A stretch of 54,443 bases of DNA, from IMG/VR virus record IMGVR_UViG_2579778982_000031. One strand, given 5' to 3'. The translations under genes were made by a program, and so were the position numbers. The notes under the pieces are model-generated. The model had not been told where the DNA came from and made no database searches. It saw nothing but the letters and a program-made list of their open reading frames with translations. Below, piece by piece: positions 27,288 to 45,261 of the stretch; position 1 is the stretch's first letter; every line of letters starts with the position of its first letter. Source of the stretch: a virus. Lineage: Duplodnaviria; Heunggongvirae; Uroviricota; Caudoviricetes.

Positions 27288-27862
27288 CAAACGATGATTA
27301 CATCCGTCTGTTGTCGGCACTGCTGCCGCCCGGTCCGGCGTGGTCAGCCAGCGATCCGGCGATTGCCGGTACGGCACCGTCATTAACCCGTGTTCATCAG
27401 CGTGCGGATGCCCTGATGCGGGAGCTGGATCCGCGCACCACCACCGAACTGATAAACCGCTGGGAGCGTCTGTGCGGCCTGCCGGATGAATGTATTCCTA
27501 CAGGGACACAGACCCTTCGCCAGCGCCAGCAACGGCTGGATGCGAAGGTTAACCTGTCGGGTGGCATCAACGAGGATTTTTATCTTGCACAGCTTGCTGC
27601 CCTGGGCAGACCAGATGCTACCATCACGCGATACGACAAAAGCACGTTCACCTGCTCATCGGCCTGTACTGACGCGGTGAATGCGCCGGAATGGCGGTAT
27701 TACTGGCAGATCAACATGCCAGCCGCCACCAACACCACCTGGATGACATGTGGCGATCCCTGTGATTCCGCACTGCGTATCTGGGGCGACACCGTTGTCG
27801 AATGTGTGCTTAACAAACTCTGCCCGTCGCATACCTACGTAATTTTTAAATATCCGGAGTAA
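27278..27862 (+). CDS. Tail protein, YmfQ-like (Mu gp48 family)
   Basis: 194 aa directly upstream of the tail fibre gene, as ymfQ is in e14. Confidence 0.65.
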
Positions 27863-27865
27863 TCC

Positions 27866-28504
27866 ATGCATCGTATAGACACGAAAACCGCGCAGAAGGA
27901 TAAGTTCGGCGCGGGTAAGAACGGTTTTACCCGTGGTAACCCCCAGACTGGCACGCCTGCCACCGATCTGGATGATGACTACTTTGATATGTTGCAGGAA
28001 GAACTCTGCAGCGTGGTGGAGGCATCCGGTGCCAGCCTGGAGAAGGCGCGGCACGACCAGTTGCTTACCGCGCTTCGTGCGCTGCTGTTAAGCCGCAAGA
28101 ATCCGTTTGGCGATATCAAATCGGATGGCACGGTGAAAACGGCTCTCGAAAACCTTGGTTTGGGAGAAGCGGCAAAACGGAATGTGGGAACAGGGGAAAA
28201 TCAGATACCAGATATGTCTGCATTTCCATCTGGCAAAAACTGGTTTCAGTTACCAAGTGGTCATATTGTCCAAATGTTTTCGATGAATGTTTATGGGGCG
28301 GACACTAACGGAACTACAGGTAATTTCCCTATTGCATTTCCTTCAGGCGCACTGGCTGTTAGTGCCTTATGGTCAGATGGCACATTAACGGCTGCTCCGA
28401 CCTTTAAACTTATGGGGTACACGACAACAAGGACATCAGTAACCTTAAAAGTATCAGCCGGAAATGGTTTGTATGGAACTATGATTATCGCAATAGGAAG
28501 ATAA
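27866..28504 (+). CDS. Tail fibre protein (constant N-terminus plus variable C-terminus in current orientation)
   Basis: Spans the left crossover repeat at ~28150; the part upstream of the repeat is shared with the alternative C-terminus encoded on the opposite strand. Confidence 0.7.
28150..28168. repeat. Left crossover site of the invertible tail-fibre segment (hix/gix-like)
   Basis: TTGGTTTGGGAGAAG with an AAAACC-TTGGTTT palindromic core inside the fibre gene; inverted copy at 30046-30064. Confidence 0.6.
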
Positions 28505-28505
28505 T

Positions 28506-28949
28506 ATGAATCAATATATTTATTCCCCTTCGGAAAATGCTTTTTATGCTGTTAATTTAAAAAACACTTATGAAGTAAATGGAACATGGCCTGCTGATGC
28601 ATTAGATATTCCTGATGACATTTCTGTAAAATATATGGCGGAACCGCCACAAGGGAAAATCCGAGTTGCAGGGGAAAATGGTTTTCCCACATGGGCTGAA
28701 ATACCTCCACCATCACATGAGGAACTTATTGAACAGGCCGAATCAGAGAGGCAATTATTGATTAACCAGGCCAACGAATACATGAACAGTAAACAATGGC
28801 CCGGTAAAGCCGCTATTGGTCGTCTGAAAGGCGAGGAACTGGCACAATATAATTCGTGGCTGGATTATCTGGACGCACTGGAACTGGTCGATACTTCCGG
28901 GGCGCCAGATATTGAATGGCCTACGCCTCCGGCAGTTCAGGCCAGATGA
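28506..28949 (+). CDS. Tail fibre assembly protein (Tfa)
   Basis: 147 aa after the fibre gene; conserved C-terminal PDIEWPTPP motif. Confidence 0.7.
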   Translation: MNQYIYSPSENAFYAVNLKNTYEVNGTWPADALDIPDDISVKYMAEPPQGKIRVAGENGFPTWAEIPPPSHEELIEQAESERQLLINQANEYMNSKQWPGKAAIGRLKGEELAQYNSWLDYLDALELVDTSGAPDIEWPTPPAVQAR

Positions 28950-29526
28950 CATCCGGCGCGGTGCTGGTATCTGTTGCCGTCACCGCGTCAATGTAATCCA
29001 GCACAGCGTTAAGGCGGGTTGTTTCTGCCTGCGTCAGTTTACGTCCGGCCTGTAATTTCAGCTGAATCAGACTGATGGAGGCCATTGCAGTATCAATCAG
29101 TGACTGGCGCTGTGCTTCTGCCGTGTCTACTGCGACGCTATGCTGTGCCTCAGTATCGGTCACCCATTTCTCACCATCCCATTTATCGTATGGTGTTAAC
29201 GGGGCGATAGTTGTGGTATTTTCAGGGTAATCACCCGGAGCTGTGATTTCTTTTGACTCTCCCGTTTTGGTGCTATAGACGATTTCACCGCGATGGTCTG
29301 GCACATATTCCCATGAGTTAAAATTTGCAGAACGACAGATAGCATAACCCACCTTATATGTGCCAGGAGCATCTAAACAGGAATATGCGGGGATACCGAC
29401 ACCCACAGCAAGATATTCAATTGATGCAGAAATATACTCCCGTGTCTCACTGTCATAGTTATAAACGGTAATCTCTCCTGCCTTTGTGGCAATAAATTTA
29501 TTATTTAAGATGGCGTTATACATCAT
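28921..29526 (-). CDS. Alternative tail fibre assembly protein (inverted copy)
   Basis: 201 aa on the opposite strand inside the invertible segment; ends with the Tfa-type motif PDVIWPELPEA. Confidence 0.7.
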   Translation of the reverse strand: MMYNAILNNKFIATKAGEITVYNYDSETREYISASIEYLAVGVGIPAYSCLDAPGTYKVGYAICRSANFNSWEYVPDHRGEIVYSTKTGESKEITAPGDYPENTTTIAPLTPYDKWDGEKWVTDTEAQHSVAVDTAEAQRQSLIDTAMASISLIQLKLQAGRKLTQAETTRLNAVLDYIDAVTATDTSTAPDVIWPELPEA

Positions 29527-30101
29527 GCAGCCCTCACAATGTAATTAAATGAAATATTACGTGGGCGTGTCTCTGCTGCACCGACAATACTGGTGCTCAA
29601 CCCCGTTGCCGTTCGTTTGTTATTTTTATTTCCTTCAATCAGACAGTTGTAATCATCATTACCAATTAACGAATTGGTGGCATCAATACTGTCCGGGGAC
29701 AAGGCATTAGTAGTGGAACTTAAAGTCAGCATCTCGTCTGAACTTGGAAGATTTTTTAATGGTGTTTCATTGCGTGAAATACCCGCGTAAAAAAAGGACT
29801 CATGCCTGTGAGCTTCAAAAGAGTCATCCTGAAGACTTAGCAAGGCTCGCCCCGCATCCACTCCACGTCCATCATCCCAGCCACGAATAAATTCACCGCG
29901 TAAATCAGGCAATTTATTGGTCGGGTAAGCCTTTGCCAGTTCCGGGTATTCTTCAGCAGAAAAAGCCGCACCATTGCATTTCAGCCAGCCTGTTGGCGGA
30001 GTGGCTGAAGGCCACGGAACAGGCACCCCAACCGGTAATGCAGAGCCTTCTCCCAAACCAACGTTTATGAAAATGCAGAAATAACGAGCAAATGGCATCA
30101 T
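29523..30101 (-). CDS. Alternative tail fibre C-terminal segment (silent in this orientation)
   Basis: Contains GWLKCNGAAFSAEEYPELAKAY...LPDLRGEFIRGWDDGRG, typical of Mu S/P2 H-type receptor-binding C-termini; 5' end crosses the right crossover repeat. Confidence 0.65.
   Translation of the reverse strand: MMPFARYFCIFINVGLGEGSALPVGVPVPWPSATPPTGWLKCNGAAFSAEEYPELAKAYPTNKLPDLRGEFIRGWDDGRGVDAGRALLSLQDDSFEAHRHESFFYAGISRNETPLKNLPSSDEMLTLSSTTNALSPDSIDATNSLIGNDDYNCLIEGNKNNKRTATGLSTSIVGAAETRPRNISFNYIVRAA
30046..30064. repeat. Right crossover site of the invertible tail-fibre segment
   Basis: Reverse complement of the 28150-28168 repeat (≥15 bp identical), just upstream of the invertase gene. Confidence 0.6.
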
Positions 30102-30127
30102 TCCTGCTTTTGTCAGGGAGATCTACC

Positions 30128-30682
30128 ATGCTTATTGGCTATGTACGTGTGTCAACAAATGACCAGAACACAGATCTACAACGTAATGCGCTGAACTGTG
30201 CAGGATGCGAGCTGATTTTTGAAGACAAGGTAAGCGGTACAAAGTCCGAAAGGCCGGGACTGAAAAAACTGCTCAGGACATTATCGGCAGGTGACACTCT
30301 GGTTGTCTGGAAGCTGGATCGGCTGGGACGTAGTATGCGGCATCTGGTCATTCTGGTTGAGGAGTTGCGCGAACGTGGCGTTAATTTTCGCAGCCTGACG
30401 GATGCTATTGATACCAGCACACCGATGGGGCGTTTTTTCTTTCATGTGATGGGTGCCCTGGCTGAAATGGAACGAGAACTGATTGTTGAACGAACAAAAG
30501 CTGGACTGGAAGCTGCTCGCGCACAGGGACGAATTGGTGGACGTCGTCCCAAACTTACACCAGAACAATGGGCGCAGGCCGGGCGATTAATTGCATCAGG
30601 CGTTCCTCGCCAGAAGGTGGCTATTATCTATGATGTTGGTGTGTCAACTTTGTATAAGAGGTTTCCAGCCAGGGTTATATAA
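30128..30682 (+). CDS. pin: Serine DNA invertase (Pin/Gin/Hin family)
   Basis: MLIGYVRVSTNDQNTDLQRNAL...VVWKLDRLGRSM...; catalytic Ser in the VRVST motif and C-terminal HTH; close from memory to e14 Pin. Confidence 0.9.
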   Translation: MLIGYVRVSTNDQNTDLQRNALNCAGCELIFEDKVSGTKSERPGLKKLLRTLSAGDTLVVWKLDRLGRSMRHLVILVEELRERGVNFRSLTDAIDTSTPMGRFFFHVMGALAEMERELIVERTKAGLEAARAQGRIGGRRPKLTPEQWAQAGRLIASGVPRQKVAIIYDVGVSTLYKRFPARVI

Positions 30683-31024
30683 AACCGCAGACATGTCGTA
30701 TGCAGGAGGTGTCGCGGTTGGCTGGTGAACTTTTGATAGTGCGAGTATTGAATGATTTCCAGCCGTTACTGATTTTACGCATTTTTGTATGAGAGGGTTT
30801 GCACCTCCTTCCACCGATTCTCCATGACTTTACGCCACTGTCTCTAGAACTGCTATGTGCCAACAGCAGACATTCATAGCACACAGTTTTGTTAACAACT
30901 AGAAATAAGTTTAGGAATAGTCGCGATATATCTATTAAAGATACAATCATTCAAATAAATGAGACATTTTCGGCATGCTGGGAAAAGTAATTAAAAATGG
31001 TGAAAGCCAATTATTTTTTATTAA

Positions 31025-31531
31025 TCAACTTTTAAACCATAAGTCATCTCGATAGAGTAGACTAATTTTCGTTGCATCTTTTGATGCTAGAGTCGTACAC
31101 TCTCCTTTATCAAACTCATCTAGACTCACAAATGTAAATTCGTCACCATTTTTTTCTTTCGGAAACACCATAAAGACTACTTCGAAAGTACAATCACTAT
31201 ACACATTTTTTAAGAATTGCTGAAGTGCTCTATACTTTCCTATTTCACAATCAGTAAGTGTAAAGGAGGTACACCCATCTGTTGAGTGATACTTCGCATC
31301 TAAAAGAATATAAGAGGATTCGTCAGCGTCAATAATGAAATCGGGGCGTTTCCCCCCATATGATTTCAAGTTTGCAGATAAAGTATTTATTCCTTGCTCA
31401 ACATGTTCAAATTTCCACTTGGATTTTTCCAGCCATCTACTAGCATATTTCTCACCATCTTGACCAGCCGTTATAGAGTATTGTTTTCTTAATGCGCTGC
31501 ACATTTCGTCTAAATTTAACATAAATTCCAT
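31025..31531 (-). CDS. Hypothetical protein with PD-(D/E)xK nuclease-like motif
   Basis: AT-rich ORF; putative motif ...E...RPDFIIDADESSYILLDAKY (PD...D-A-K spacing). ATG chosen at MEFML. Motif assignment is by eye only. Confidence 0.4.
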   Translation of the reverse strand: MEFMLNLDEMCSALRKQYSITAGQDGEKYASRWLEKSKWKFEHVEQGINTLSANLKSYGGKRPDFIIDADESSYILLDAKYHSTDGCTSFTLTDCEIGKYRALQQFLKNVYSDCTFEVVFMVFPKEKNGDEFTFVSLDEFDKGECTTLASKDATKISLLYRDDLWFKS

Positions 31532-31799
31532 GTTCCTTTTTTTTAGTATAATTATTAACATCGGCAGTATTTAATAATTCTTTAAAAATAAATTTTCAGG
31601 CTCATACCAATTATATCTTCAAGCATTATTATCAAGCATATTCGAGACCTCTGCAATTCGCTCACAGCGGATCTCGCCTAGCGAGCAGGTCTGCTCAGTG
31701 CCATAATTAGTCTCATCAGCAGACTATAGTTGTGCTCAATCGGAGACATGTGGCAAACATGAGGAACATTATGTCCGTCAAAGAGTTTTCGTAGCTTAG

Positions 31800-32121: not shown

Positions 32122-34875
32122 CTATTTGATTGCTGCATTGATTCGTTTATATCTTTGGGTAAAGGCCTCTTTGCCACCTTCCATCACTCGGCATATCTCA
32201 TCGCGTATGGAAGGTTCTTGAAGACCCCCTTGCGCCACAATTCTGGTTTGACCAGACCGAATATCAAGGGCAATGACGTTTTCCGCGTCACCATTCACGA
32301 CGATGTTAGCGTTGTGCGTGACTACTAAAACCTGCCGTTTTTGTTTGATCTCACGCAATTGCGTCACGATAAGATCATAGATTAAGTGGTTATCAAGATC
32401 ATCCTCAGGCTGATCAAGTATAAGAGGCTCATTGCCATATGAAAGGATAAATGCAAGGAGAGCCGCCGTTTTTTGCCCCGGAGATCCTTGCTCTACGGGT
32501 TTGAAACTCTCGCCGTTCTTGAGGCTATATCTGATATCCAGAGAATCGCCTGGAAACCAGCACTGAATTCGATCTATCTGTTCCGGAGTTAGCCCCTGAA
32601 TGAGGGATACAAAACGTCGATCTTTGCAGGATTCCACCGCCATAGTATCGTTTTCATGGATTGCAAGTAGCGATGATTTTATTTTCTCAATTTTATCATC
32701 CATAGTATTGGATTGGTCTTGCGTTAAATAAGCCAGCAAGCCCTCATCCCCGTCAACAACTCCAATGTCGCGGTCAAATCCGCCACCACTGCGGCCGATC
32801 AGGTTACGGAATTCTTCCTCAACCGTAATCTTGTTTCCAAACGGAATGACATTGATCTGTACATATGAATTGCCGACGAGAGTATCCTTGAGAAAGTCCT
32901 CACGAAGTTTGGTTATCAATGCTCGATGCTCATGGAGTTTGACCAAGTATTCTTCCGCGCTCTTCTGATGCTGCGCAAGAGTTTCTCTCTTTTTGTCGAA
33001 TCCCTTGAGCTTATCTTCGAAATCTTGTCGCTGCTTAACCAGAACACCATATGCAGATGGATCACCTGCGTCTGCTGCGCTGAGTTGACCGAGGAGGGCG
33101 TTGTATTCATGGCTCGCCGCTGTAATTCTTTTCGATATTCCCAAGTCTGATCGAGTTTGATTCCATGAGTTCTTCACATCATCAATCCGCTGCGCGATCG
33201 AGTTCATCTCTGTCTGAAGCTTCTCAAACGTCGCACGGATGTCCTTGATGGTATCGAAGAGTTCTTTGTCATCCGCATTCCCAATGTCGAAATATTGTAA
33301 ATCCAATTCTGCTGGCAGTAGGCTTCCAGAAATATCTCGGACCTGTTCGGCGGAATCCTCCCAAGTCGTTACCCAGGAGTCCATAGCCTTACTCTGGTTC
33401 TGTCTGAGTTGGTAAGCCTTAAGGACATCCGCGTGGCCCGCCTTTTCAAAAACATCGAGTTTGCGTTTGACGTCTTCAAGCTGACCTTTGGTTACCGATT
33501 CTTCCTGAAGCCCAGCCTGAACTTCACGCTCTTGGGCGCGAAGCGAGAGATATTTGGAAACCAGTTCATCCCACTTAAGCTGCCAATCACGATGATTGAC
33601 CTCCGGGGCATCATCGACAACCTGCAAGAGTGCTTGGGGATGCTTTGCCAATTCGAATATCTGTTTCTGGCTGTAAATCCTGACAGGAAATCGTTGTGCT
33701 ATGTCTCCCTCGGAATCACACCAGACTCCGGGAGCGGTCTCTTCCTCGATGCTGTATATGTCGTCGGTATTAGACCAGGTGATTCGGAAACGGCCACCGT
33801 CTTTTCGAAAGCCTACAGTTATTTTCGTGGAATCTTTTAACAGCCCTTCATCTTGGCGGTCTTTCGAAGTTTGACTGTATTTGGTAAATTCCTTTTCAAG
33901 GCTCTTGGGGATTTCTCCCTTTCGTTTAAGAGCAATCCGCAGGAATTCCAACGAAGTCGATTTCCCAGTGCCTCGTCCACCAATGATAGTGTTGAGCCAG
34001 GGGTTCAGTTGACAAGTTAAAGATTGCCCTCGTCCTAAGTACTTCGCATCATCAACCACGATACTTTCGATGGCAAGTTGTCCATGGATATTTGGGTCAC
34101 CAGTGAAGTTGTCCGACCGCTTCAGTGAAAGAGCCCCATCAACGAGCGCCAGCCGTAATCCGTCATAAGATGGCTCCGACATTTTTACCCAAGTGAAATG
34201 GCTACCCGGGTAGCGTTGATTTCCGGTACCGGACGGATGATGGGAATCGGTTCCAAGAATCTCTGCCCAATTCAAATTCTTGCCAATATAGAGCTGCGGT
34301 TTTGCTTTAGCAAGGTCCGTTACCTCCATAGCAAAAACACATTTGTTGTCAAGCACCTGCTCTAGTGTGTTGCCCGTACAGACCGTAAAAAGTCCGCTAG
34401 CCTGATCTACATGAGCAGGTATTGCAAGTCCTCCTGACCTAGCAATTTCGTCGATCACCTCAACTGCTGAGCATTCAGAGCAGCCGTCGCTCTTTCCTTT
34501 GGTGCCGCGATACCTGACCGCACCAAGCAGTGAGTCGATATCAGAGGTTGTCTTGTCTTCGCCGAAAATGGCCAGAATATGGATATTCCCCTGAACAGTA
34601 AGCTCAACACCTGGGAATAAGTAGAGTGGTCGATAATCTTCATGACTCTCAGATGCCAGTTCCTTGAGTGCCTGCTTGAGCGGATCAATCCAAGCGCCTG
34701 AATTATGGTCCGTGACAGCGACACAATCGATGCCTTGTCGCATGTAGTTGAGCAGCCAATCTTTATGAGTGATCTGCATATACTGGGCCTGATTAGGGCC
34801 TTTTCCATAATCGTCCGATGCCGGAGTGTGATTATGGAAGTCGAATTTCCACCACCGAGAACCAATCCAGTTCAT
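32122..34875 (-). CDS. PHP-domain phosphoesterase fused to SMC/ABC-like ATPase (Ppl-like candidate anti-phage protein)
   Basis: N-terminal PHP motifs (FDFHNHTPASDDYG, AVTDHNS, IPAHVD); Walker A GGRGTGKSTSLEFL; long coiled-coil region; Walker B/D-loop LILDQPEDDLD and H-loop VVTHNANIV. 917 aa. Confidence 0.6.
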   Translation of the reverse strand: MNWIGSRWWKFDFHNHTPASDDYGKGPNQAQYMQITHKDWLLNYMRQGIDCVAVTDHNSGAWIDPLKQALKELASESHEDYRPLYLFPGVELTVQGNIHILAIFGEDKTTSDIDSLLGAVRYRGTKGKSDGCSECSAVEVIDEIARSGGLAIPAHVDQASGLFTVCTGNTLEQVLDNKCVFAMEVTDLAKAKPQLYIGKNLNWAEILGTDSHHPSGTGNQRYPGSHFTWVKMSEPSYDGLRLALVDGALSLKRSDNFTGDPNIHGQLAIESIVVDDAKYLGRGQSLTCQLNPWLNTIIGGRGTGKSTSLEFLRIALKRKGEIPKSLEKEFTKYSQTSKDRQDEGLLKDSTKITVGFRKDGGRFRITWSNTDDIYSIEEETAPGVWCDSEGDIAQRFPVRIYSQKQIFELAKHPQALLQVVDDAPEVNHRDWQLKWDELVSKYLSLRAQEREVQAGLQEESVTKGQLEDVKRKLDVFEKAGHADVLKAYQLRQNQSKAMDSWVTTWEDSAEQVRDISGSLLPAELDLQYFDIGNADDKELFDTIKDIRATFEKLQTEMNSIAQRIDDVKNSWNQTRSDLGISKRITAASHEYNALLGQLSAADAGDPSAYGVLVKQRQDFEDKLKGFDKKRETLAQHQKSAEEYLVKLHEHRALITKLREDFLKDTLVGNSYVQINVIPFGNKITVEEEFRNLIGRSGGGFDRDIGVVDGDEGLLAYLTQDQSNTMDDKIEKIKSSLLAIHENDTMAVESCKDRRFVSLIQGLTPEQIDRIQCWFPGDSLDIRYSLKNGESFKPVEQGSPGQKTAALLAFILSYGNEPLILDQPEDDLDNHLIYDLIVTQLREIKQKRQVLVVTHNANIVVNGDAENVIALDIRSGQTRIVAQGGLQEPSIRDEICRVMEGGKEAFTQRYKRINAAIK

Positions 34876-35237
34876 TTGTACCGTTCCTATTCTTTTTATT
34901 AGTGCGTCTGCGCGAGGTCGCTAACTTTGCAAACTAGATTACCTTGTAAGGTTGGAAAGTCCAACGTCCGCTGTTCGTCATAGCAGACATTCACTACAGT
35001 TATGGCAGAAAGGTATGCATGTTGAGGTGGGAAAGTCGTGAAAGAAAAGAAAACTGCTGCGCTGTTTGTCGTCACGTTTATCTTCATTGGCTATGCAAGT
35101 CATAATACAAGGTGGGACAAAACTGAGACACATAAGGCCTCACAATGGCTTGCAAGGCTTTACATGTTTTGATGTGGTGGGACGTGTGAGCGCAGTGTTG
35201 ATGGGGTAATGCTTTGAATTAGAAGCGGATTCTTATA

Positions 35238-35283
35238 ATTCGTAATGCGAAGGTCGTAGGTTCGACTCCTATTATCGGCACCA
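35238..35283 (+). tRNA. 3' fragment of tRNA-Thr(CGU) (thrW-like), candidate att site; not an intact tRNA
   Basis: ATTCGTAATGCGAAGGTCGTAGGTTCGACTCCTATTATCGGCACCA matches the anticodon-loop-to-CCA half of enterobacterial tRNA-Thr(CGU) as recalled; the 5' half is absent upstream. Confidence 0.6.
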
Positions 35284-35300
35284 TTCAAACATCTCCCCAA

Positions 35301-35385
35301 GTCTACTAAAGTCTTTCAAAACCCCTTATAATCCGCGTATTAAAGCCCCGTTCGTCTTTTGACGTCTACTAAAGTCCCTCAAAAT
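35301..35385. repeat. Two ~22-bp direct repeats between the att fragment and the integrase gene
   Basis: GTCTACTAAAGTCTTTCAAAAC (35301-35322) and GTCTACTAAAGTCCCTCAAAAT (35364-35385), 20 of 22 identical; candidate integrase arm-type sites or operator repeats. Confidence 0.4.
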
Positions 35386-35448
35386 CTACGGTCAGATGGG
35401 GGTACTTATGGGGGTATTTGCTGTTCGGTTTAGTGGAGGTACCCCCAA

Positions 35449-36663
35449 GTGAAACTCAATGCCCGTCAAATAGACACAGCCAAGCCAAAAGAGAAGGCTT
35501 ACAAGCTGACCGATGGTGGCGGTTTGTATCTCTTGGTAAAACCTAATGGAGGTAAATACTGGCGACTTAAATATCGTGTAGCTGGTAAAGAGAAGCTATT
35601 GGCACTAGGTGTGTATCCTGAGGTTACTCTAGCCGATGCTCGGGCAAAACGTGAAGATGCGAAAAGAGGTATCGCTGGTGGTATCGATCCGATGGAAGCG
35701 AAACGAGAGGAAAAGATTGCCCGGGAAACGCAGTTAAACAACACCTTCAAAGATATTGCCCTTGAGTGGCACAGCAGCAAATTAAAAAAATGGTCTGATG
35801 GTTATGCTTCAGACATCCTCGAAGCCTTCAACAAAGATGTGTTCCCTTACATTGGCAAAAAACCCATCGCCGAAATCAAACCACTTGAACTTCTGAATGT
35901 GCTGCGTCGCATCGAGGGGCGCGGTGCTACAGAAAAAGCCAAAAAAGTGAGGCAACGGTGCGGGGAAGTTTTCCGCTATGCAATAGTCACTGGTCGCGCA
36001 GAGTATAACCCTGCACCAGACCTTACTAGCGCGATGCAAGGCCATGAATCTAATCATTACCCTTTCCTTACAGCCAAAGAATTACCTGATTTTTTCAAGG
36101 CATTGTCCAGTTACTCAGGAAGCGCATTGGTTGTTATGGCGGCTCGTCTACTGATTATCACCGGCTTGCGGACTGGCGAACTACGTGGCGCATTATGGGA
36201 TGAAATTGATTTCAACAAGGCTATCTGGGAGATACCCGCTTCACGTATGAAAATGCGGCGGCCTCATATTGTGCCATTGTCTGAGCAGGCTCTTTCGCTT
36301 ATTGGGAAGATTAGAGAAATAACAGGCAATTACCCTCTTATGTTTCCCGGGCGCAATGATCCAAGGAAAACAATGAGCGAGGCCAGCATAAACCAAGTGT
36401 TTAAGCGCATTGGCTACGCTGGACGTGTAACTGGTCATGGGTTCCGGCACACTATGAGTACGATTTTGCATGAGCAGGGCTATAACACCGCGTGGATAGA
36501 AACGCAGCTCGCTCACGTTGATAAGAACTCAATTCGTGGCACATACAACCATGCGCAATATCTGGATGGAAGGCGGGAGATGCTTCAATGGTATGCCGAC
36601 TATATGGATTCTCTCGAGCATGGCGGAAATGTGGTGCATATGGTGTTTGAAAAACACGCATGA
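35449..36663 (+). CDS. int: Tyrosine integrase, P4-like
   Basis: N-terminal DUF4102-type arm-binding region (LTDGGGLYLLVKPNGGKYWRLKYR); catalytic box GHGFRHT...; next to a tRNA 3' fragment; GTG start after GGAGGT. Confidence 0.85.
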   Translation: MKLNARQIDTAKPKEKAYKLTDGGGLYLLVKPNGGKYWRLKYRVAGKEKLLALGVYPEVTLADARAKREDAKRGIAGGIDPMEAKREEKIARETQLNNTFKDIALEWHSSKLKKWSDGYASDILEAFNKDVFPYIGKKPIAEIKPLELLNVLRRIEGRGATEKAKKVRQRCGEVFRYAIVTGRAEYNPAPDLTSAMQGHESNHYPFLTAKELPDFFKALSSYSGSALVVMAARLLIITGLRTGELRGALWDEIDFNKAIWEIPASRMKMRRPHIVPLSEQALSLIGKIREITGNYPLMFPGRNDPRKTMSEASINQVFKRIGYAGRVTGHGFRHTMSTILHEQGYNTAWIETQLAHVDKNSIRGTYNHAQYLDGRREMLQWYADYMDSLEHGGNVVHMVFEKHA

Positions 36664-37054: not shown

Positions 37055-37258
37055 ATGGCTAATTACAATTCATTAATTCGTCTCTCTGAAGTTCAAAGGC
37101 GAACTGGTTATAGCAAAGCATGGATTTATCGTCTTATTAGTCAGGGGAGGTTCCCTAAACAGGTAAAAATTGGAAGTCGGGCAATTGCTTTTGTTGAGTC
37201 TGAAATAGATGAATGGATTGAGAAGTGTATATTAGAATCTAGAGACGAGGTGGCCTGA
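37055..37258 (+). CDS. alpA: AlpA-family transcriptional regulator / excisionase-like
   Basis: 67 aa; LSEVQRRTGYSKAWIYRLISQGRFPKQVKIGSRAIAFVESEIDEWI is a typical AlpA/Vis HTH. Confidence 0.75.
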   Translation: MANYNSLIRLSEVQRRTGYSKAWIYRLISQGRFPKQVKIGSRAIAFVESEIDEWIEKCILESRDEVA

Positions 37259-37689
37259 TGGAAAAGAAAAACCGCCCATTACAGGCGGCTAATTCAGATA
37301 TTCGTGTATCTGATGTTACGCCCCTTACAAAATCCCTTCAAGCACCAAAGCGTACACCGAAAAAGCATCGTGCCAGAGTCTATATGCTGCGTACTGGTAT
37401 AGAGGGATGGACAGAAAATGACATTCTTCGCTACTGCCGTCTGTCTTCTGGTCGTAACTATGCAACAGAGTTAGAACGCCAGCTTGGAATCACTCTGGAG
37501 CGTATCGACGAAAAGAATCCTGATGGTATCGGAACACACCTTCGCTACCGTTTCTCCTGCCGTGGTGATGTTCTGAAAGTGATCACTCATATTAACCATC
37601 TTGCGAACATAAATGATCACAACGGACTTTCTCAGCAGGAAATTGCCGACATTCTGAAACTCTACCCGGACGCGTTTAACGCCGCCTAA
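37258..37689 (+). CDS. Hypothetical protein
   Basis: 143-aa ORF, ATGA-coupled to alpA. Confidence 0.4.
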   Translation: MEKKNRPLQAANSDIRVSDVTPLTKSLQAPKRTPKKHRARVYMLRTGIEGWTENDILRYCRLSSGRNYATELERQLGITLERIDEKNPDGIGTHLRYRFSCRGDVLKVITHINHLANINDHNGLSQQEIADILKLYPDAFNAA

Positions 37690-37701
37690 CGGAGACTGAA
37701 A

Positions 37702-38535
37702 ATGAACATCGAAAAAAGCAGATTAATTTCTGAGGCTGCCCCTCATCTGAACGCCTCTCTGGGCACAATTAACGGTAATGAATTTGCCGCAATTGTCCCG
37801 GTTATTCCTGGTCATATCGGTGGGCGTGAAACCAATATTGTTAGCGCAAAAGCGTTACACAAAGCGTTGGGCGTGGGAAAAGACTTCTCTACATGGATCA
37901 CTGATCGCATCTCTGAATATGACTTCACCATTGGGCACGATTACTCAGTCCATAAAACAATTTCCCCAAATTTGGGGAAAAGCCCGAATGGCGCGGCTTA
38001 CAGCAAGATTAAGCAGTCTGGCAGACCCGGCAAAGACTATCTGTTAAGTGTCGGAATGGCGAAAGAACTGGCAATGATCGAACGCAATGATCAGGGTCGC
38101 GCTATCCGTCGTTATTTCATCCAGTGCGAGGAAGAATTACAGCGTAGCGTGCCTGAAATCGCCGCCCGCTATCGTCGCCAGCTAAAAGCCCGTATTAGTG
38201 CCGCAAACAACTTTAAGCCAATGTGCGATGCGCTGAATATGGCCCGTGCCGAGCAGGGGAAAACGACGCAGCAACACCACTACACAAACGAGAGCAATAT
38301 GATTTCTCGTATCGTTCTTGGTGGGCTAACTGCTAAGCAGTGGGCGCGGATAAATGGCTATTCTGGCGAACCTCGCGACCATATGAACGCAGAACAGCTT
38401 GAGCACCTCTCATATCTCGAAAGCACCAATATCACGTTAATTGATATGGGCATGGAATATGAGCAGCGCAAAGGAGAACTCACCCGCCTGTCGCAACGCT
38501 GGCTCGCCAAGCGTCTGGAGGCGGTCCATGTTTAA
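37702..38535 (+). CDS. Phage antirepressor-like protein (AntA/KilAC-like)
   Basis: N-terminal region resembles AntA-type antirepressor domains (NGNEFAAIVPVIPGHIGG...VSAKALHKALGV); assignment tentative. Confidence 0.45.
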   Translation: MNIEKSRLISEAAPHLNASLGTINGNEFAAIVPVIPGHIGGRETNIVSAKALHKALGVGKDFSTWITDRISEYDFTIGHDYSVHKTISPNLGKSPNGAAYSKIKQSGRPGKDYLLSVGMAKELAMIERNDQGRAIRRYFIQCEEELQRSVPEIAARYRRQLKARISAANNFKPMCDALNMARAEQGKTTQQHHYTNESNMISRIVLGGLTAKQWARINGYSGEPRDHMNAEQLEHLSYLESTNITLIDMGMEYEQRKGELTRLSQRWLAKRLEAVHV

Positions 38536-38703
38536 GCCGACAGGAACACCACAACCCCAAAAACGCTACAAAGATGCCCACGGAGCACTCGTTACTGTCG
38601 AAAGCGTGTCTCACAACCGAGTGACGTTTTATCGCGACGGGTATCAATCGCCATGCGTACAACTGCTGGCGCGCTTCATGAAGGAGTTCGCGGAGGTTAA
38701 CAA

Positions 38704-39771
38704 ATGCTAACCGTCCAGAAGAAGATATTTTCACTGGCTGGTATGTCGCCAAAATCCAGCAATATGACAGCAAAGTCTGGCATTAATACAGCATATACAA
38801 GCAAAGTTTATCATTTTCTGGTGGTAGGAGCGGATGCCTTAACTATGTCAGAAATTACGGTCGATGGTGTTAGCGTTGAGAAGGTCGGCGGCTGCGCCAG
38901 AGAATTTCTGGTCGTAGATGGCTTTCTCTGCTCGCGTAGTGACTCCACAAAAACCTTCGTCCACACGCGCGACGTTAACGAAATGAGCGCGATGTATTGT
39001 GCATCTGGTGCTTCCAATAGTGAGTTTTCGGAGTCCATAAAAAAGAGCTTGCCGTTATGCGGCAACACGGTTTATGGTTATAAGGCACCTCATAAAACGG
39101 GTGCCGGGATTGGCGTCCTGAAAATTCTGAAGGCGACATATGACGCGCCGAGCGTCTTTTTTTATGTCGTAGGTCTGACTCACCCATTTTTTGGGCGTTG
39201 GTGTATAATCCAGCGCCTTTGTCAATCAATGGTGGCTCAGGCGGGGGCTTCTTCGGAAGCGCCGGTATCCTTCAGAGCCGGTTACGCCAACCCTGTCTGG
39301 GCTACCACCAGCGAAATTGGCGTTTCCGGTGGTAGCGTAACCTGCTATCTGAAGGAGGCTGCCACATGCTGGCTACTACCCCTACCCAAAAACCGCAATT
39401 TATCTGGATTATCGCCGCAGTTCGCCGCGATTGCCCGACAATTACCGCCAAAATTCATCATATTGCTGCCGAGTCTGAACGCGATGCTCGCCGTTCTCTG
39501 GTGCGCGATCACGTCTGCTTTTTTGCTGGTCGTATCCGCATGGAGGTGGCACATGATTAAAACCTACGATGTGCATATGGATCCCCTCGAACGCACAAGC
39601 CAGATCATCACACTGACAGAAGTGATTAACGACATTCTGGTGAGCAACTCTCCCTCACGAGACGAAAGACTGAAGGCGTTACTCGCGATATTGGATCTCG
39701 CCGTTCGTGACGTTCATTTCCTGCTGGAAGGTGGCGAAATGCCAGGAAAAACGGGGGCAACCAATGAATAA
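38704..39771 (+). CDS. Hypothetical protein; gene structure ambiguous
   Basis: 355-aa ORF whose middle looks non-protein-like; a 64-aa ORF (39366-39560, RBS AGGAGG) in another frame and a 72-aa in-frame C-terminal ORF from 39553 (RBS GGAGGT) may be the real genes. Confidence 0.3.
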
Positions 39772-39958
39772 CTCAATTAATGCCCCTCGACTTACGTCCG
39801 CACTTCAATTAATCGAGCAAGCAGCGGCTGTCCTGGTTGCTGTCAGTCTTTCGGCTGAAGAAATGGACGCTGCTGATGTCGTGGATGCGATTAAAGCGTG
39901 CTCATCTTTGGTTAACGATGCCCGTGCAGAGCTGGTAATTCTTGGGGGTGAAAAATGA
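39764..39958 (+). CDS. Hypothetical small protein
   Basis: 64-aa ORF from an internal ATG; part of a run of coupled small genes. Confidence 0.35.
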   Translation: MNNSINAPRLTSALQLIEQAAAVLVAVSLSAEEMDAADVVDAIKACSSLVNDARAELVILGGEK

Positions 39959-40218
39959 ATATCAACTTAATTTATCGTCATCCGTGTGAGCTGGAAATTG
40001 AATCATTGCTGGGGCGTGAAGAGCCATATCCAGACACATTCACTCCCGCAGATTGCGCGACTGAACGGCTTACCAGAGCGCGCACAGGTCTGGTTCATGT
40101 GATGAATGAGATTATTCCCTCGGTGGGAGGGGAACAGGCGACAGTAATCAATAGCTGGCTACAAAAAGTTACCTCCCTGATAGATATCAGTTTAATCGAT
40201 GTGGAGAGTGCGAAATGA
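39955..40218 (+). CDS. Hypothetical small protein
   Basis: 87-aa ORF, ATGA-coupled. Confidence 0.4.
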   Translation: MNINLIYRHPCELEIESLLGREEPYPDTFTPADCATERLTRARTGLVHVMNEIIPSVGGEQATVINSWLQKVTSLIDISLIDVESAK

Positions 40219-40436
40219 CCAACATCCAGCTCATTGAAGCGCAATGTCGCATCGAACAGGTTCAGACTGTTTTAGGGTTCTGGCTTGAAGGGGCCAGCCC
40301 CAGCAACAGAGACAAGTTAATGATTGGCGCGGTTATGTCACTGCTCAATGGCGTACCAGAAGCTATTCAGGAAGCAGACGAATTGTTGGGCAAATATGAG
40401 TTACAGAATCATTCAGGCGAGGCGAAACATGAATAA
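40215..40436 (+). CDS. Hypothetical small protein
   Basis: 73-aa ORF, ATGA-coupled. Confidence 0.4.
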   Translation: MTNIQLIEAQCRIEQVQTVLGFWLEGASPSNRDKLMIGAVMSLLNGVPEAIQEADELLGKYELQNHSGEAKHE

Positions 40437-41031
40437 TTTCTTAACCTTCCATGCAGAAGCAACGCCTGACGGCGTAAACATCATGTACCGCAGCAACGAT
40501 GGCATGACAGAACGCGTTGAGGCCGTTTCATATATTGATGCCGTAAATCGTCTGGATGCCGGGGATTATGACGATAAACCAGATGAAGGTATGTCAATAC
40601 ATCTTGCTATTGCCGATGGCGGCAACCAGGGATATTTCGATTACACATCACAGCATAACGTCATTATGTGGAGATGGCTGATCGCAACAGTATTCATGCT
40701 GGAAATGAGAGAGGAAAACGGCACTGTCAGCATCATTGATGATACTGGCAATCCTTCCGAAGTGGCTGTTTATTCCAACGGCATCGTCGCCATGCCGCTG
40801 TATCCAGTAGCAGAGCGCCTCGCTATGGCAAACAACATTGAGGGCGCGATGATAGAACGTTTTGGCATCGAGTCTGGCACAGAACGCGCCATCATTTTCT
40901 ACAGAGCCATGATGGATGTGGAACAAGGAGCACTGACTCCATTTGGTCGTGAAACGCTTGCTGAACTTCACAACAGCTTTATAGCTGAACTGAATGAAAA
41001 CGGCATGCCAGCGGAACCAGTGACGCACTGA
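40429..41031 (+). CDS. Hypothetical protein
   Basis: 200 aa from the ATG at 40429, overlapping the previous stop. Confidence 0.45.
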   Translation: MNNFLTFHAEATPDGVNIMYRSNDGMTERVEAVSYIDAVNRLDAGDYDDKPDEGMSIHLAIADGGNQGYFDYTSQHNVIMWRWLIATVFMLEMREENGTVSIIDDTGNPSEVAVYSNGIVAMPLYPVAERLAMANNIEGAMIERFGIESGTERAIIFYRAMMDVEQGALTPFGRETLAELHNSFIAELNENGMPAEPVTH

Positions 41032-41041
41032 GGATGGAGCC

Positions 41042-41383
41042 ATGATTACTAAAAATTTCCGACTGAATGCGCTGGCAAATAAGTATGCGTCGGCACTGTA
41101 TAACCACATTACCTCCACCAGCGGCGGGGACTATTTCATGGTTCATGCGGACGACAAGGCCGTACGTGTGGAAATCGTCAATGGAGTAAAAGGCGTTCGC
41201 AGCCTGATCGATAGCTACACACTGGCTGCCATGAAAGTGTTCTACCCGCAGTGGGAAACCGTGGGGATCGAGCTTCTTGATCGTTGCGTCACTAAGGACG
41301 GATTGACTGACGTCGGGCGTGAGATATGGCAAAGCATGGTTAATGACATGGGCGCAACTGTAGCGGGAGGTTCTCATGCGTGA
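41042..41383 (+). CDS. Hypothetical protein
   Basis: 113-aa ORF in the small-gene operon before the primase. Confidence 0.45.
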   Translation: MITKNFRLNALANKYASALYNHITSTSGGDYFMVHADDKAVRVEIVNGVKGVRSLIDSYTLAAMKVFYPQWETVGIELLDRCVTKDGLTDVGREIWQSMVNDMGATVAGGSHA

Positions 41384-41747
41384 AAATGCAGAAATGGCGC
41401 TTAGCTCCGCAATCGGAGAGCAGGTGGCAAAGATTGCTGGTGCTGTGTGGATTCATAACCTTCATTCTACTGGTGAAGAGAAAATGGCAATTCAGACGCC
41501 AGAGGGACGCACCATTACTACATCTCTGAAGCCGTCAGATGTTTGTGATCTGATTTGCGCATTCATGTACCCAGCAATGAGGACTGTCCACGGCGATAAG
41601 TGGAAACTTGCGACAACCGCTGAATTTGATATGTGGCTAAACAATGATGGCATGCTGACTGATTACGGAATAACCAAGTGGCAGATGCTGGTTAGCCATA
41701 TCGCAAACGCTATAGACCACGTGGGGTACGGTGATGCGAAACATTGA
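41376..41747 (+). CDS. Hypothetical protein
   Basis: 123-aa ORF overlapping the primase start. Confidence 0.45.
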   Translation: MRENAEMALSSAIGEQVAKIAGAVWIHNLHSTGEEKMAIQTPEGRTITTSLKPSDVCDLICAFMYPAMRTVHGDKWKLATTAEFDMWLNNDGMLTDYGITKWQMLVSHIANAIDHVGYGDAKH

Positions 41748-44490
41748 TCTTATCCGTCAGGTTATCAGTGCGTCTGAAAACAACTGGCCTCATGTGCTGG
41801 GCTGCCTGAACATAAATGTCCCTGACTCTCCGCGCCGTCATGCTCCCTGCCCTGCATGTGGGGGCAAAGATCGATTCCGGTTCGATGACAACGGGCGCGG
41901 TAGCTTCATCTGTAATCAGTGCGGCGCTGGTGATGGGCTGGATTTAATTAAACGCGTAAATAACTGCGACACAACAGAGGCGGCGCTTCTTGCCGCTGAT
42001 GTTCTGGGTATTGATTACCGGACAACGGAAACACCAGAAGCCACCAGCCAGAAACGGGAACAACTGGAAACCGAGCGCCAGCGACGCGAACAGGAGCGCC
42101 TGAAAAGGGCAGAGAAGGACGAACAACAAAGACGGGATACGTTTTCCCGTCAGTTTGATGACATGCGCAGAAAGGCTGTAAACGGCAAATCTGATTATCT
42201 GGTTGCGAAAGGGGTAGGTGATTTTACATTCCCCGTGTTGCCCGATGGATCTCTGTTGCTGGCGCTGGTGGATAAATCCGGCGCAGTCACAGCAGCACAG
42301 ACTATTACCTCACATGGTGAAAAAAGACTCCTGACAGGTTCAGCAAAGCGGGGGGCATATCACGCCATAAACGCACCAGAAACAACACAGAGCATCTTAA
42401 TCGCAGAAGGGCTGGCAACGGCATTATCTGCCCATTTAATTCGTCCAGAGGCGCTGACAGTGGCGGCGATTGATGCCGGGAACCTGTTATATGTCGCCCA
42501 GGTACTGCGGGATAAATATCCATCAGCACAAATCATCATTGCTGCGGATAACGACCACAGCGAAGGAAGACAAAACACGGGGAGAATAGCAGCAGAAAAA
42601 GCAGCTTTATCTGTTTCTGGATGGGTGGCATTACCCCCGACAGATCACAAAGCAGACTGGAATGATTACCACCAAAAACACGGCATTAAATGCGCCACAG
42701 AAGCGTTCAATAAGTCAATGTACCAACCACAGGGTAATGGCGTGAAACAGGAGCCACAGACCATTGAGGGAAGCGATTTTAAGGTTATGGATACCGACCC
42801 ACTGAAACCAAGAATAGAAAGCCGCGAGGATGGTATTTATTGGGTATCTCCGAGAGCTGACAGCCAGAGTGGAGAAATCATCAATAACGAAAGCTGGTTA
42901 TGTTCTCCGTTAAGCGTTATCGGTACTGGCAGAGACGATAAAGACCAGTATCTCATTCTTCGCTGGCTGTCGTTTGGTTCTGAAACGCCGACAACCGCTG
43001 CCATTCCACTGGCTGATATTGGTGAACGTGAAGGATGGCGCACACTTAAAGCTGGTGGGGTAAATGTCACGACCAAAAGCAGCCTCAGAGCAATACTGGC
43101 AGACTGGCTACAACGCAGTGGCTCTCGTGAATTGTGGCGTGTTGCTCATGCCACTGGCTGGCAATGCGGAGCGTACATCATGCCTGATGGGGAAATCATC
43201 GGAACACCTGAAAATCCTGTGCTGTTCAGCGGGAGAAGCTCAGCCGCAGCCGGATATACCGTCTCAGGGAGCGCGAAAAGCTGGCGTGATAACGTGGCGC
43301 GTCTGGCCTTTGGTAACTATTCAATGATGACCGGGATCGGCGCAGCACTGGCAGCGCCATTGATTGGGCTGGTGGGCGCTGACGGGTTCGGCATTCATTT
43401 CTATGAGCAGTCGAGCGCAGGTAAGACCACCACGGCAAACGTGGCGAGCAGCTTATACGGCAACCCTGATTTACTGCGGCTGACGTGGTACGGAACCGCG
43501 CTGGGGCTGGCAAATGAAGCCGCCGCCCACAATGACGGACTAATGCCGCTTGATGAAGTTGGTCAGGGCGCTGATCCTGTCAGTGTTTCACAGTCTGCCT
43601 ATGCGTTATTTAACGGTGTAGGGAAACTGCAAGGCGCTAAAGATGGTGGAAACCGGGATCTAAAACGCTGGCGTACAGTGGCAATCAGCACTGGAGAAAT
43701 GGATTTAGAAACATTTATCGCTACTTCCGGGCGAAAAACCAAAGCCGGGCAACTGGTGCGACTGCTGAATATTCCGTTGAGTAAAGCAGTACGCTTTCAC
43801 GATTACCAGAACGGAAAACAGCACGCAGACGCACTGAAAGACGCTTACCAGCATCACCACGGCGCAGCCGGGCGTGAGTGGATTAAATGGCTGGCAGACC
43901 ACCAGCAACAGGCAATTAAAACTGTTCGTGACTGCGAAAGCAGATGGAGAAGTCTGATCCCATCCGATTATGGTGAGCAGGTTCACCGTGTAGCCGCGCG
44001 ATTTGCCATTCTGGAGGCCGCATTGCTGTTAGGCGAGGTTGTAACAGGCTGGGATGCTCAGACATGCCGTGATGCGATACAGCACAGCTATAACGCATGG
44101 TTGCGCGAGTTCGGCACAGGTAACAAAGAACATCAGCAGATTATTGAACAAACGGAGGCATTTCTTAATGCCTATGGGCTTAGCCGTTTTGCACCATTTC
44201 CATACAGCCCGGCAGATTTGCCCATCAAAGATTTGGCCGGATACCGTCAGCGTGGAGAACATGACGAAAGCCCAATGATTTTCTACACATTCCCGGCCAC
44301 ATTTGAAAAGGAGATCGCATGTGGTTTCAACGCAAAACAGTTTGCTGAAGTGTTGAAAAAAGCCGGGATGCTAACCCCACCAAACAGCGGTCGTGGATAC
44401 CAAAGAAAATCACCACGTATTCAGGGACGACAAATAAACGTTTATGTACTCAATTACCAGCCAGGAGATTATAACTCATCTGAAGAATGA
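41734..44490 (+). CDS. Primase-helicase (P4 alpha-like; zinc ribbon + TOPRIM + P-loop NTPase)
   Basis: Zinc ribbon CPACGG...CNQCG; TOPRIM-like ILIAEGLATA and AADNDH; Walker A GIHFYEQSSAGKTTTAN; followed directly by an iteron array. Confidence 0.8.
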   Translation: MRNIDLIRQVISASENNWPHVLGCLNINVPDSPRRHAPCPACGGKDRFRFDDNGRGSFICNQCGAGDGLDLIKRVNNCDTTEAALLAADVLGIDYRTTETPEATSQKREQLETERQRREQERLKRAEKDEQQRRDTFSRQFDDMRRKAVNGKSDYLVAKGVGDFTFPVLPDGSLLLALVDKSGAVTAAQTITSHGEKRLLTGSAKRGAYHAINAPETTQSILIAEGLATALSAHLIRPEALTVAAIDAGNLLYVAQVLRDKYPSAQIIIAADNDHSEGRQNTGRIAAEKAALSVSGWVALPPTDHKADWNDYHQKHGIKCATEAFNKSMYQPQGNGVKQEPQTIEGSDFKVMDTDPLKPRIESREDGIYWVSPRADSQSGEIINNESWLCSPLSVIGTGRDDKDQYLILRWLSFGSETPTTAAIPLADIGEREGWRTLKAGGVNVTTKSSLRAILADWLQRSGSRELWRVAHATGWQCGAYIMPDGEIIGTPENPVLFSGRSSAAAGYTVSGSAKSWRDNVARLAFGNYSMMTGIGAALAAPLIGLVGADGFGIHFYEQSSAGKTTTANVASSLYGNPDLLRLTWYGTALGLANEAAAHNDGLMPLDEVGQGADPVSVSQSAYALFNGVGKLQGAKDGGNRDLKRWRTVAISTGEMDLETFIATSGRKTKAGQLVRLLNIPLSKAVRFHDYQNGKQHADALKDAYQHHHGAAGREWIKWLADHQQQAIKTVRDCESRWRSLIPSDYGEQVHRVAARFAILEAALLLGEVVTGWDAQTCRDAIQHSYNAWLREFGTGNKEHQQIIEQTEAFLNAYGLSRFAPFPYSPADLPIKDLAGYRQRGEHDESPMIFYTFPATFEKEIACGFNAKQFAEVLKKAGMLTPPNSGRGYQRKSPRIQGRQINVYVLNYQPGDYNSSEE

Positions 44491-44513
44491 GCTTCTTCAT
44501 GTGCGTAGAAAAG

Positions 44514-44640
44514 GTGTTGGTTCAGTTGGTTCAGTTGGTTCAGTTGGTTCAATTTGTAAAGAGTATTGTTTTATAAGGATTTTATTCTTTTTATTGAACC
44601 AACACTGAACCAACAACACGGTATTTTGAACCAACACAAT
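44514..44640. repeat. Iteron array, candidate replication origin of the satellite-like element
   Basis: Four tandem GTTGGTTCA, an AT-rich spacer, then three inverted TGAACCAAC copies; immediately downstream of the primase-helicase. Confidence 0.6.
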
Positions 44641-44955
44641 GTGACTGAATTGATGCGCACAACACCTGGCTGGCATCAGAGAGTGTTTTACGAGACTTTC
44701 GTAAAATCCTGTGTACAAGGGCGTGACGTTTTTGAAAGTGAGCACTACGAAATTTTCGTAGTTCAAAAAACAGCCTCTGAGAAGTTGTTATGCCTGTTCA
44801 GCAAACCATCCGCATAGCTGATCGCGAATCAAATTACCAATGGAGCCAGAAGCAAGGGCAGAACTGAAAAGTGCCTGCCGTGAAGAGTAATGCGACACCA
44901 TAAATATAGTTTTTAGAGTCCATAAAAAACCAGTCAAAACCTGACACACAGAACG

Positions 44956-44988
44956 ATGCCACCAGCTACTGAGCGGTGGCATTTTTTT
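44956..44988 (+). terminator. Rho-independent terminator
   Basis: 8-bp stem ATGCCACC/GGTGGCAT with ~10-nt loop followed by TTTTTTT. Confidence 0.5.
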
Positions 44989-45083
44989 GTGCTATTTGTT
45001 TCATATTTTGCAATTACGATGATGAATATTGCGATTTATGAAACTATAATAACTGTTGTTTTATACAGTTCTAAGGGGGCGTT

Positions 45084-45245
45084 ATGGCTATTTCAGTAAA
45101 GCCGGTATTGATAAGTGAGAAGCAAATGGAAGCGATAAAGAAAATTCAGGAAGAGCAGCGTAAAAAATCAGGAATTGGAGTAGCGCCAACTCTGCATGAA
45201 ATTGCTCGAGGGTTAATAGATAAGGCGCTGGCAGGCTGTATGTGA
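45084..45245 (+). CDS. Small putative DNA-binding protein
   Basis: 53-aa ORF not in the supplied track; AAGGGGG RBS 5 nt before the ATG; lysine-rich helical composition. Speculative. Confidence 0.3.
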   Translation: MAISVKPVLISEKQMEAIKKIQEEQRKKSGIGVAPTLHEIARGLIDKALAGCM

Positions 45246-45261
45246 AAATGGATGGCATCGC

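Follow-up and report, generated by a model that had tools for sequence, protein, structure and literature searches.

A 46-nt thrW fragment as the probable internal attachment junction between an SfI/SfV-type prophage and an EcCIMP1-type satellite

The viral record IMGVR_UViG_2579778982_000031 is a stretch of 54,443 nucleotides (hereafter the window) in which a fragment of a threonine tRNA gene lies between two mobile elements. This fragment is very probably an internal attachment (att) junction, at which a prophage of the SfI/SfV type and a phage-inducible chromosomal island (PICI) of the EcCIMP1 type were independently integrated in tandem at the 3′ end of thrW. The original prediction, made from the letters of the window, had already read the fragment as an internal att junction of two tandem elements. 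This reading was supported: both the prophage and the island are also met singly at thrW, with precisely the same ends, and the tandem junction, consisting of the phage arm, the core and the island arm, was found in 138 of 5426 complete E. coli genomes. Each component of the array has been described before, namely the 46-bp core, the tandem occupancy of thrW, EcCIMP1 with its core, and the arm-repeat architecture of P4. The result mainly serves annotation and implies no new mechanism; it fixes the boundary between both mobile elements at 35267-35283 and relocates the likely integrase arm sites to 35396-35448.

The window corresponds to positions 1-54443 of contig JICA01000001.1 (assembly GCA_000691105.1), with which it was found to agree base for base over 22122-44875, and the assembly breaks inside the prophage. 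Beyond the window, the contig was covered out to position 60,430. The fragment, ATTCGTAATGCGAAGGTCGTAGGTTCGACTCCTATTATCGGCACCA, occupies window positions 35238-35283 and matches exactly the 3′ 46 nt of the 76-nt thrW gene of E. coli K-12, which encodes tRNA-Thr(CGU). It is identical at all 46 positions both to thrW and to the published core of the SfI type; in SfI the core of attP, attL and attR is the same 46 bases, and it is stated to be identical in SfII, SfV, SfX and P22 (PMC3636060). Within the window the 46-mer is single-copy even when three mismatches are allowed, with none expected from shuffled sequences. The 5′ half of thrW is absent: the 30 nt upstream of the fragment agree with the gene at 8 of 30 positions, which is the level of chance, and neither ARAGORN nor Rfam detected a tRNA gene in the window. 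The alignment to thrW and the two tRNA searches therefore support the claim that only the 3′ 46 nt of tRNA-Thr(CGU), ending in CCA, is present without its 5′ half; re-examination brought up no intact tRNA. The fragment had also been placed directly upstream of a P4-like int gene, and this agrees with the GTG start codon at 35449, which lies 165 nt past the CCA.

Searches of the window with the 46-mer, a 25-mer and a 14-mer, with mismatches allowed, detected no further copy of the core, because the outer copies lie beyond the window. On the right, a 17-nt copy (TCCTATTATCGGCACCA) was located at contig positions 56143-56159, 1.7 kb past the window end, where it is followed by the native flank TTAAAATCAAAGAGTTACCCC, yagP′ and paoD. 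The island extends to contig position 56159, which gives it a length of approximately 20.9 kb, and the core TCCTATTATC is present at both of its ends (window 35267-35276 and contig 56143-56152). It had been proposed to look for the intact tRNA and for further att copies, and the reading was to be given up if no other copy of the core appeared at the outer boundaries. The right-hand boundary does carry such a copy, on the same contig as the internal one, and all three copies were seen in a comparator: the chromosome of PK8276, a complete genome of an analogous strain, has an intact thrW beside the phage int, an internal 46-mer and a short right-hand remnant.

The identity of the left element was revealed by comparison with E. 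coli S163-2, in which a prophage with the Ppl gene is found alone at thrW. Positions 1-35293 of the window are colinear with this prophage at 99.0-99.8% identity, except for a 1.2-kb replacement at approximately 9.3-10.5 kb, and the homology stops at 35293, 10 nt beyond the CCA. In the complete S163-2 genome, proA and an intact thrW are followed, in this order, by a 372-aa integrase, early and late genes of lambdoid type, a module for a contractile tail, a Pin invertase, a gene annotated as ‘TrlF family AAA-like ATPase’, the 46-mer, a yagP′ fragment and paoD; exactly two copies of the 46-mer are present in that genome. The structural genes of the prophage are approximately 97% identical to those of the Shigella phages SfII, SfI, SfIV and SfV, and window 35113-35289 is 98.3% identical to the att region of phage SfIV, including the 125 nt before the core. 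The core sits at the end of the prophage opposite int, beside the cargo and flanked by the phage att arm, in the order Ppl, arm (34958-35237), core.

This arrangement resembles the att sites of SfI, SfII, SfV, SfX and P22, where the same 46-bp core is found at the same place, opposite int and right after the cargo locus. In phages of the SfI type, the cargo genes gtrABC lie immediately before attP (PMC3636060; PMC3851460). Here, Ppl takes the place of these O-antigen modification genes, and the right-hand neighbour is another element rather than the chromosome. The position of Ppl is held in other strains by retron Ec67 together with a DUF262 protein, or by other genes. A ‘defence islet’ had been described to the left of the fragment. 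A defence gene (Ppl) is indeed present there; however, in view of the S163-2 layout it is not an islet of its own but cargo of the left prophage, at the place that gtrABC takes in phages of the SfI type. The same-position cargo, the layout of S163-2 and the identity with the SfI core together lead to this assignment and to that of the 46-mer as prophage attR. The int-proximal part of the prophage (phage int, xis and the immunity region) and thrW itself fall outside the contig.

Judged by its sequence, the right element is a copy of an experimentally characterized type of satellite. EcCIMP1 was reported by Pick, Stadel and Raivio (2025) as a 19,963-bp PICI in the tRNA-Thr gene between proA and yagU, flanked by direct repeats TCCTATTATC (PMC11773190). 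To excise and circularize, it depends on its own int and alpA and on the induction of a helper, the P22-like phage Kapi1, by which the island is also transferred; no capsid-remodelling genes were found in the analysis of EcCIMP1, and the element was classed as a PICI (PMC11773190). Window 35238-51846 is colinear with the EcCIMP1 region of E. coli MP1 at 98.3-98.9% identity over 16.6 kb (98.3% over 36805-51846). The two islands, at 98-99% nucleotide identity, share the gene order from int to a 232-aa open reading frame (ORF), the tRNA-Thr site between proA and yagU, and the core. They differ in the variable region at 51.85-54.0 kb, which holds two unnamed ORFs in the window and alpA_1 in MP1. 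They also differ in their neighbours: the island of the window has the prophage at its left and the chromosome behind it, whereas EcCIMP1 in MP1 has the intact thrW at its left and the Vat island behind it. The integrase of the satellite and P4 Int align from end to end at 42% identity (E = 6e-116). No Pfam match to P4 psu, sid, delta or epsilon was found among the island ORFs scanned, a scan that left out some small ORFs; therefore, it is only the integration module that appears P4-like.

Single occupancy by the island was found in strains 2273-PO3 and MP1. In 2273-PO3 the island comes after an intact thrW, and its sequence agrees with window 35238-35760 at 100% identity. The junction of core, arm and int of the island occurs in 1025 of the 5426 complete genomes, mostly with an annotated intact tRNA-Thr, and the prophage end in which Ppl is joined to the 46-mer occurs in 13. 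The combination of Ppl with this island was found in none of the complete E. coli genomes scanned, and a gapped exact-pattern scan of a species-representative genome collection gave 0 matches to the junction of the window itself. The neighbours of both elements vary. Depending on the strain, the prophage end adjoins the chromosome, the Vat island or other islands, and the island is followed by the chromosome, CP4-6 or the Vat island. The site thrW is heavily shared: prophages of the SfV type, islands of the EcCIMP1 type, the Vat island and CP4-6 occupy it in tandem combinations that vary from strain to strain. As observed in individual strains, CP4-6 comes directly after the island in 2273-PO3, and in MP1 a Vat/MarR island comes after it with a truncated, related P4-family int (87% identical arm). 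In K-12, CP4-6 ends with a thrW 3′ fragment beside intF.

One point weighs against the tandem reading: in this genome, thrW in its intact form and the int of the prophage belong to a different contig, as the window starts at contig position 1 inside the prophage. It could also be argued that prophage and island are parts of a single composite mobile unit and travel together, with the internal 46-mer as a relic. The presence of the tandem junction in 138 genomes suggests that some arrays were probably inherited or transferred as blocks by homologous recombination. However, each element is found alone at thrW with the same boundaries and at 98-100% identity; the same prophage attR adjoins at least four different right-hand contexts, and the island is met in several left and right contexts. 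Moreover, EcCIMP1 excises on its own (PMC11773190), and the outer right copy, with only 17 nt, is too short for the 46-bp phage core. A composite unit is therefore very improbable. That thrW was cut by an unrelated insertion or deletion, or that the assembler mis-joined a repeat, can practically be dismissed: although the sequence comes from a draft assembly and begins where a contig begins, the break falls exactly at the published boundary of the 46-base core, identical junctions occur in the 138 complete genomes, and a 46-nt repeat is shorter than sequencing reads.

Two independent integrations would explain the tandem structure as follows. Both integrases would target the 3′ end of thrW, and each attP would bring along a copy of the tRNA end by which the gene is rebuilt. 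The prophage integrase would use the 46-bp core, leaving an intact thrW beside the phage int and a 46-nt duplicate at the far end, past Ppl. The P4-family integrase of the island would recombine within the last 17 nt of thrW (TCCTATTATC...), so that int would come to lie directly downstream of the tRNA end, with a 17-nt duplicate at the far end. Since the 17-nt core is nested in the 46-nt core, one 46-nt stretch is enough for both: the 46-mer serves as prophage attR and as the tRNA side of the satellite attL. Either order of arrival would give the same structure, as the island may have come first and the phage then entered the rebuilt thrW, or the phage may have come first and the island then entered its attR; the order is not readable from the sequence. 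As both elements retain a full pair of sites, the excision of one without the other should bring back the two single-occupancy states seen in other strains. By inference, each element should still be able to excise alone, and this particular copy would be competent to do so.

Tandem integration at thrW has been made experimentally with SfX followed by SfI, where the newcomer inserted at the resident's attL (Sun et al. 2011, PMC3306764), and in O157:H7 clade 8 prophages have been reported in tandem at thrW (PMC9997748). In the SfI and SfX lysogen and in O157:H7, a single tRNA-Thr gene likewise harbours two elements in head-to-tail order, separated by an att copy. The difference is that here a prophage is combined with a phage satellite, and that the two integrases are unrelated and use cores of 46 and 17 nt. 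The shared junction might in principle couple its two tenants functionally, for example if AlpA or Int of the island acted on the prophage attR or the reverse, an excisionase cross-talk like that of EcCIMP1 alpA_1 and Kapi1, or if a myovirus of the SfV type were an unrecognized helper. Such coupling is regarded as highly unlikely, and the P22-type ejection-protein genes of the island argue against a myovirus helper. If it were true, the induction of one element would alter the stability or mobilization of the other.

Table 1. Features of the window around and on both sides of the thrW junction (positions in the window).
Feature	Position	Strand	Basis or remark
Left-element body, SfI/SfII/SfV-family lambdoid myovirus prophage: replication and late-regulation genes to tail fibres and Pin invertase	1..31561	+	Colinearity with S163-2
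Ppl (PHP + AAA ATPase; NCBI ‘TrlF family AAA-like ATPase’), 917 aa, single-gene anti-phage defence cargo	32122..34875	-	PADLOC Ppl, full length, E 2.3e-157
Prophage attR arm (phage-derived attP arm beside the core)	34958..35237	+	Conserved in tandem-junction genomes regardless of upstream cargo; matches begin at 34958-34978
46-nt thrW 3′ fragment, att core of SfI/SfV/P22 type	35238..35283	+	Match to thrW and published SfI core (PMC3636060)
17-nt core common to the outer att copy of the satellite	35267..35283	+	Contains the EcCIMP1 direct repeat TCCTATTATC at 35267-35276
Direct repeat 1, 21 nt, GTCTACTAAAGTCTTTCAAAA	35301..35321	+	Int-proximal arm only
Direct repeat 2, 21 nt, GTCTACTAAAGTCCCTCAAAA	35364..35384	+	3′ half weakly resembles the inverted arm repeat
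Two tandem 12-nt P4-type arm repeats, ATGGGGGTACTT and ATGGGGGTATTT	35396..35419	+	Inferred sites of the N-terminal arm-binding domain of Int
Inverted arm repeat TTGGGGGTACCT, abutting the int start codon	35437..35448	-	Homologue in P4 (3915-3926) lies across the int ATG
P4-family tyrosine integrase of the satellite, 404 aa	35449..36663 (GTG start)	+	Pfam Arm-DNA-bind_3 (PF13356), Phage_int_M (PF22022), Phage_integrase (PF00589)
AlpA-family regulator, 67 aa	37055..37258	+	Pfam Phage_AlpA, E 7e-20; gene order as in MP1
Rest of the EcCIMP1-type PICI	37258..54443	+	AntA antirepressor, Ash, C4/IsrK RNAs, TOPRIM-DUF927 primase, DUF2824, P22-type gp7/gp20/gp16-like ejection proteins, variable cargo at 51.85-54.0 kb, PerC

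The stretch between the core and int carries a second set of short repeats besides the longer pair noted in the original prediction. Three copies of TGGGGGTA, two in tandem direct orientation and one inverted, are found at 35397-35447, and they make up three of the four exact copies in 54 kb. Extended to 12-mers, the repeats at 35396-35419 and 35437-35448 are the only matches to the consensus in 54 kb when up to one mismatch is allowed. Two more tandem TGGGGGTA repeats are found approximately 60-85 nt inside the right end of the island, on the source contig as well as in PK8276, 2273-PO3 and MP1. The GenBank record of P4 (NC_001609) annotates 12-nt features as ‘attP arm sequence repeat’ with the motif GGGGGCA, and the layout in P4, with two repeats on the far arm, the core, approximately 113 nt, and then two direct repeats and one inverted repeat over the int ATG, is the same as that of the island. 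For the attP/int module of P4, reference is made to Pierson and Kahn (1987), as cited in PMC7286903. In both elements the core ends in TCGGCACCA, and GGGGG(C/T)A 12-mers stand in the same arrangement. The two differ in target and motif: the island targets thrW and carries TGGGGGTA, whereas P4 targets leuX and carries TGGGGGCA.

More distant thrW islands vary in this motif. In CRE78, PO06021 and AH21, all three near-arm copies read GGGGGCA, and so do both far-arm copies in CRE78, the sole diverged island in which that arm was examined. The T/C variant is uniform over all copies examined within each relative, on both arms where both were examined. Because the motif changes jointly across copies and across both arms, the TGGGGGTA repeats are best taken as the sites of the arm-binding domain of Int, by analogy with P4. 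On these repeats, the arm-binding domain would help to build the intasome.

By analogy with P4 and KplE1, the TGGGGGTA repeats probably also repress int. In both, Int and its directionality factor repress int via sites in attL; in KplE1 (IntS/TorI), the recombination region and the promoter of int overlap (Panis et al. 2010, PMC2951348). KplE1 and the island have in common a tRNA end, a short arm with sites for recombination proteins (predicted in the case of the island) and int in the same orientation. This KplE1-like order predicts negative autoregulation of the island int, although KplE1 differs from the island in the branch of its integrase family and in its target, argW. As a consensus scan of 34850-35550 found no sigma-70-type promoter, autoregulation of int via its promoter is put forward by analogy only.

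The two direct repeats that had been noticed between the fragment and int are real, but they measure 21 nt rather than the 22 bp first given; they are identical at 19 of 21 positions and spaced by 63 nt, with 2 matches against 0 expected. In close relatives both repeats change in step (GTC to GTA in both), whereas in distant relatives they differ in sequence and register. A tentative explanation is that the 21-nt repeats bind an accessory factor, either the island's own regulator or excisionase of the AlpA family or a bending protein of the host, which would act only on the int-proximal arm and on int expression. Their confinement to one arm, between the core and the int start, is consistent with this, as is the attL of KplE1: there, sites for the directionality factor and arm sites for Int are found together from the tRNA end to int, in a region that controls int (PMC2951348). 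On the other hand, a spacing of 63 nt is unlike the one-turn spacing given as typical of directionality-factor sites (PMC7498355), and no consensus site for integration host factor was found in 35284-35460 at up to one mismatch.

The original prediction had taken these repeats for arm-type sites of the integrase, and this now seems unlikely, although a weak additional site for Int is among the candidate functions beside AlpA and a host factor. In its favour, the repeats exist and both copies change together in close relatives, and the 3′ half of the second repeat resembles the inverted arm motif at 9 of 12 positions here and at 11 of 12 in strain 2024CK-00475. However, the repeats are absent from the other arm in every strain examined, they do not match the annotated arm repeats of P4, and no comparable repeat pair was detected in P4 itself. 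Distant relatives, moreover, keep the GGGGG(T/C)A sites but not the sequence or register of the 21-nt repeats. It is the TGGGGGTA repeats, rather than the 21-nt pair, that match the arm repeats annotated in P4.

The outer att remnant of the island is polymorphic. In PK8276, 2273-PO3 and MP1, and also at the end of the unrelated 49-kb CRE78 island, it lacks one G (TCCTATTATCG-CACCA), regardless of what lies downstream, and the intact TCCTATTATCGGCACCA is found in the contig of the window. The polymorphism may stem from the position of the crossover or from a deletion that recurred or was inherited. Ungapped searches missed the right-end remnant of PK8276 because this G is lacking, and it was recovered by alignment. 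The G-less remnant in four strains had led to the proposal that the crossover falls within CACCATT rather than within the published TCCTATTATC; this was withdrawn, since the contig of the window has the intact GG version.

Several other genes of the island were noted. Window 45262-50430 encodes a DUF2824 protein and homologues of the P22 ejection proteins, namely gp7 (PF25688), gp20 (PF16928) and a gp16-like SLT protein. These genes are called ‘DNA transfer’ genes in the EcCIMP1 paper, where they are regarded as packaging candidates (PMC11773190). The homology is compatible with a P22-like podovirus as helper and hints at an island that brings its own injection proteins. Rfam placed IsrK at 39085-39162 and a C4 antisense RNA at 39225-39312, both inside an ORF of the Ash family (38704-39771). 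With these RNAs, the AntA antirepressor and the Icd-like gene that is annotated in MP1, the island seems to contain an immunity module of the P1/P7 c4-icd-ant type. The variable cargo at 51850-54000 has a GC content of approximately 41% and contains two minus-strand ORFs, 52139-52576 (145 aa) and 52589-53674 (318 aa in annotations elsewhere). The smaller protein, of 145 aa, occurs very frequently, being indexed in 5223 blocks of the genome collection, and the two ORFs are possibly an uncharacterized pair with a defence or accessory function.

Further observations concern the prophage. Within its att arm, window 34966-35172 shares 88% identity with a stretch close to att/int in phage 21 and in lambda-like hybrid phages (M61865.1 and others), which suggests that att-arm modules may be exchanged among lambdoid phages with different integration sites. 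In the Ppl ORF, Pfam identified the domains AAA_21/AAA_23. The 1.2-kb segment at 9295-10538 (GC content of approximately 41%), which replaces the matching segment of S163-2 and contains minus-strand ORFs at 9383-10009 and 10053-10406, makes up a second small site for cargo or morons, close to the lysis genes. A 339-aa minus-strand ORF at 5206-6225 lies where the GC content falls to 43%, with the antiterminator Q region on one side and a gene for a DNA methyltransferase on the other; it is conserved in S163-2 as a hypothetical protein and is a candidate moron. PADLOC returned no match for the ORFs at 52139-53674, 31025-31561, 5206-6225 and 9383-10406, and Pfam none for the first three of these. 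Finally, a Pin-type serine invertase (30092-30682) stands beside oppositely oriented ORFs for a tail fibre and tail-fibre assembly. The prophage thus has at 28506-30682 an invertible segment for host range, comparable to those of Mu, P1, e14 and P2-like phages, and the comparator strains show alternative orientations and gene sets.

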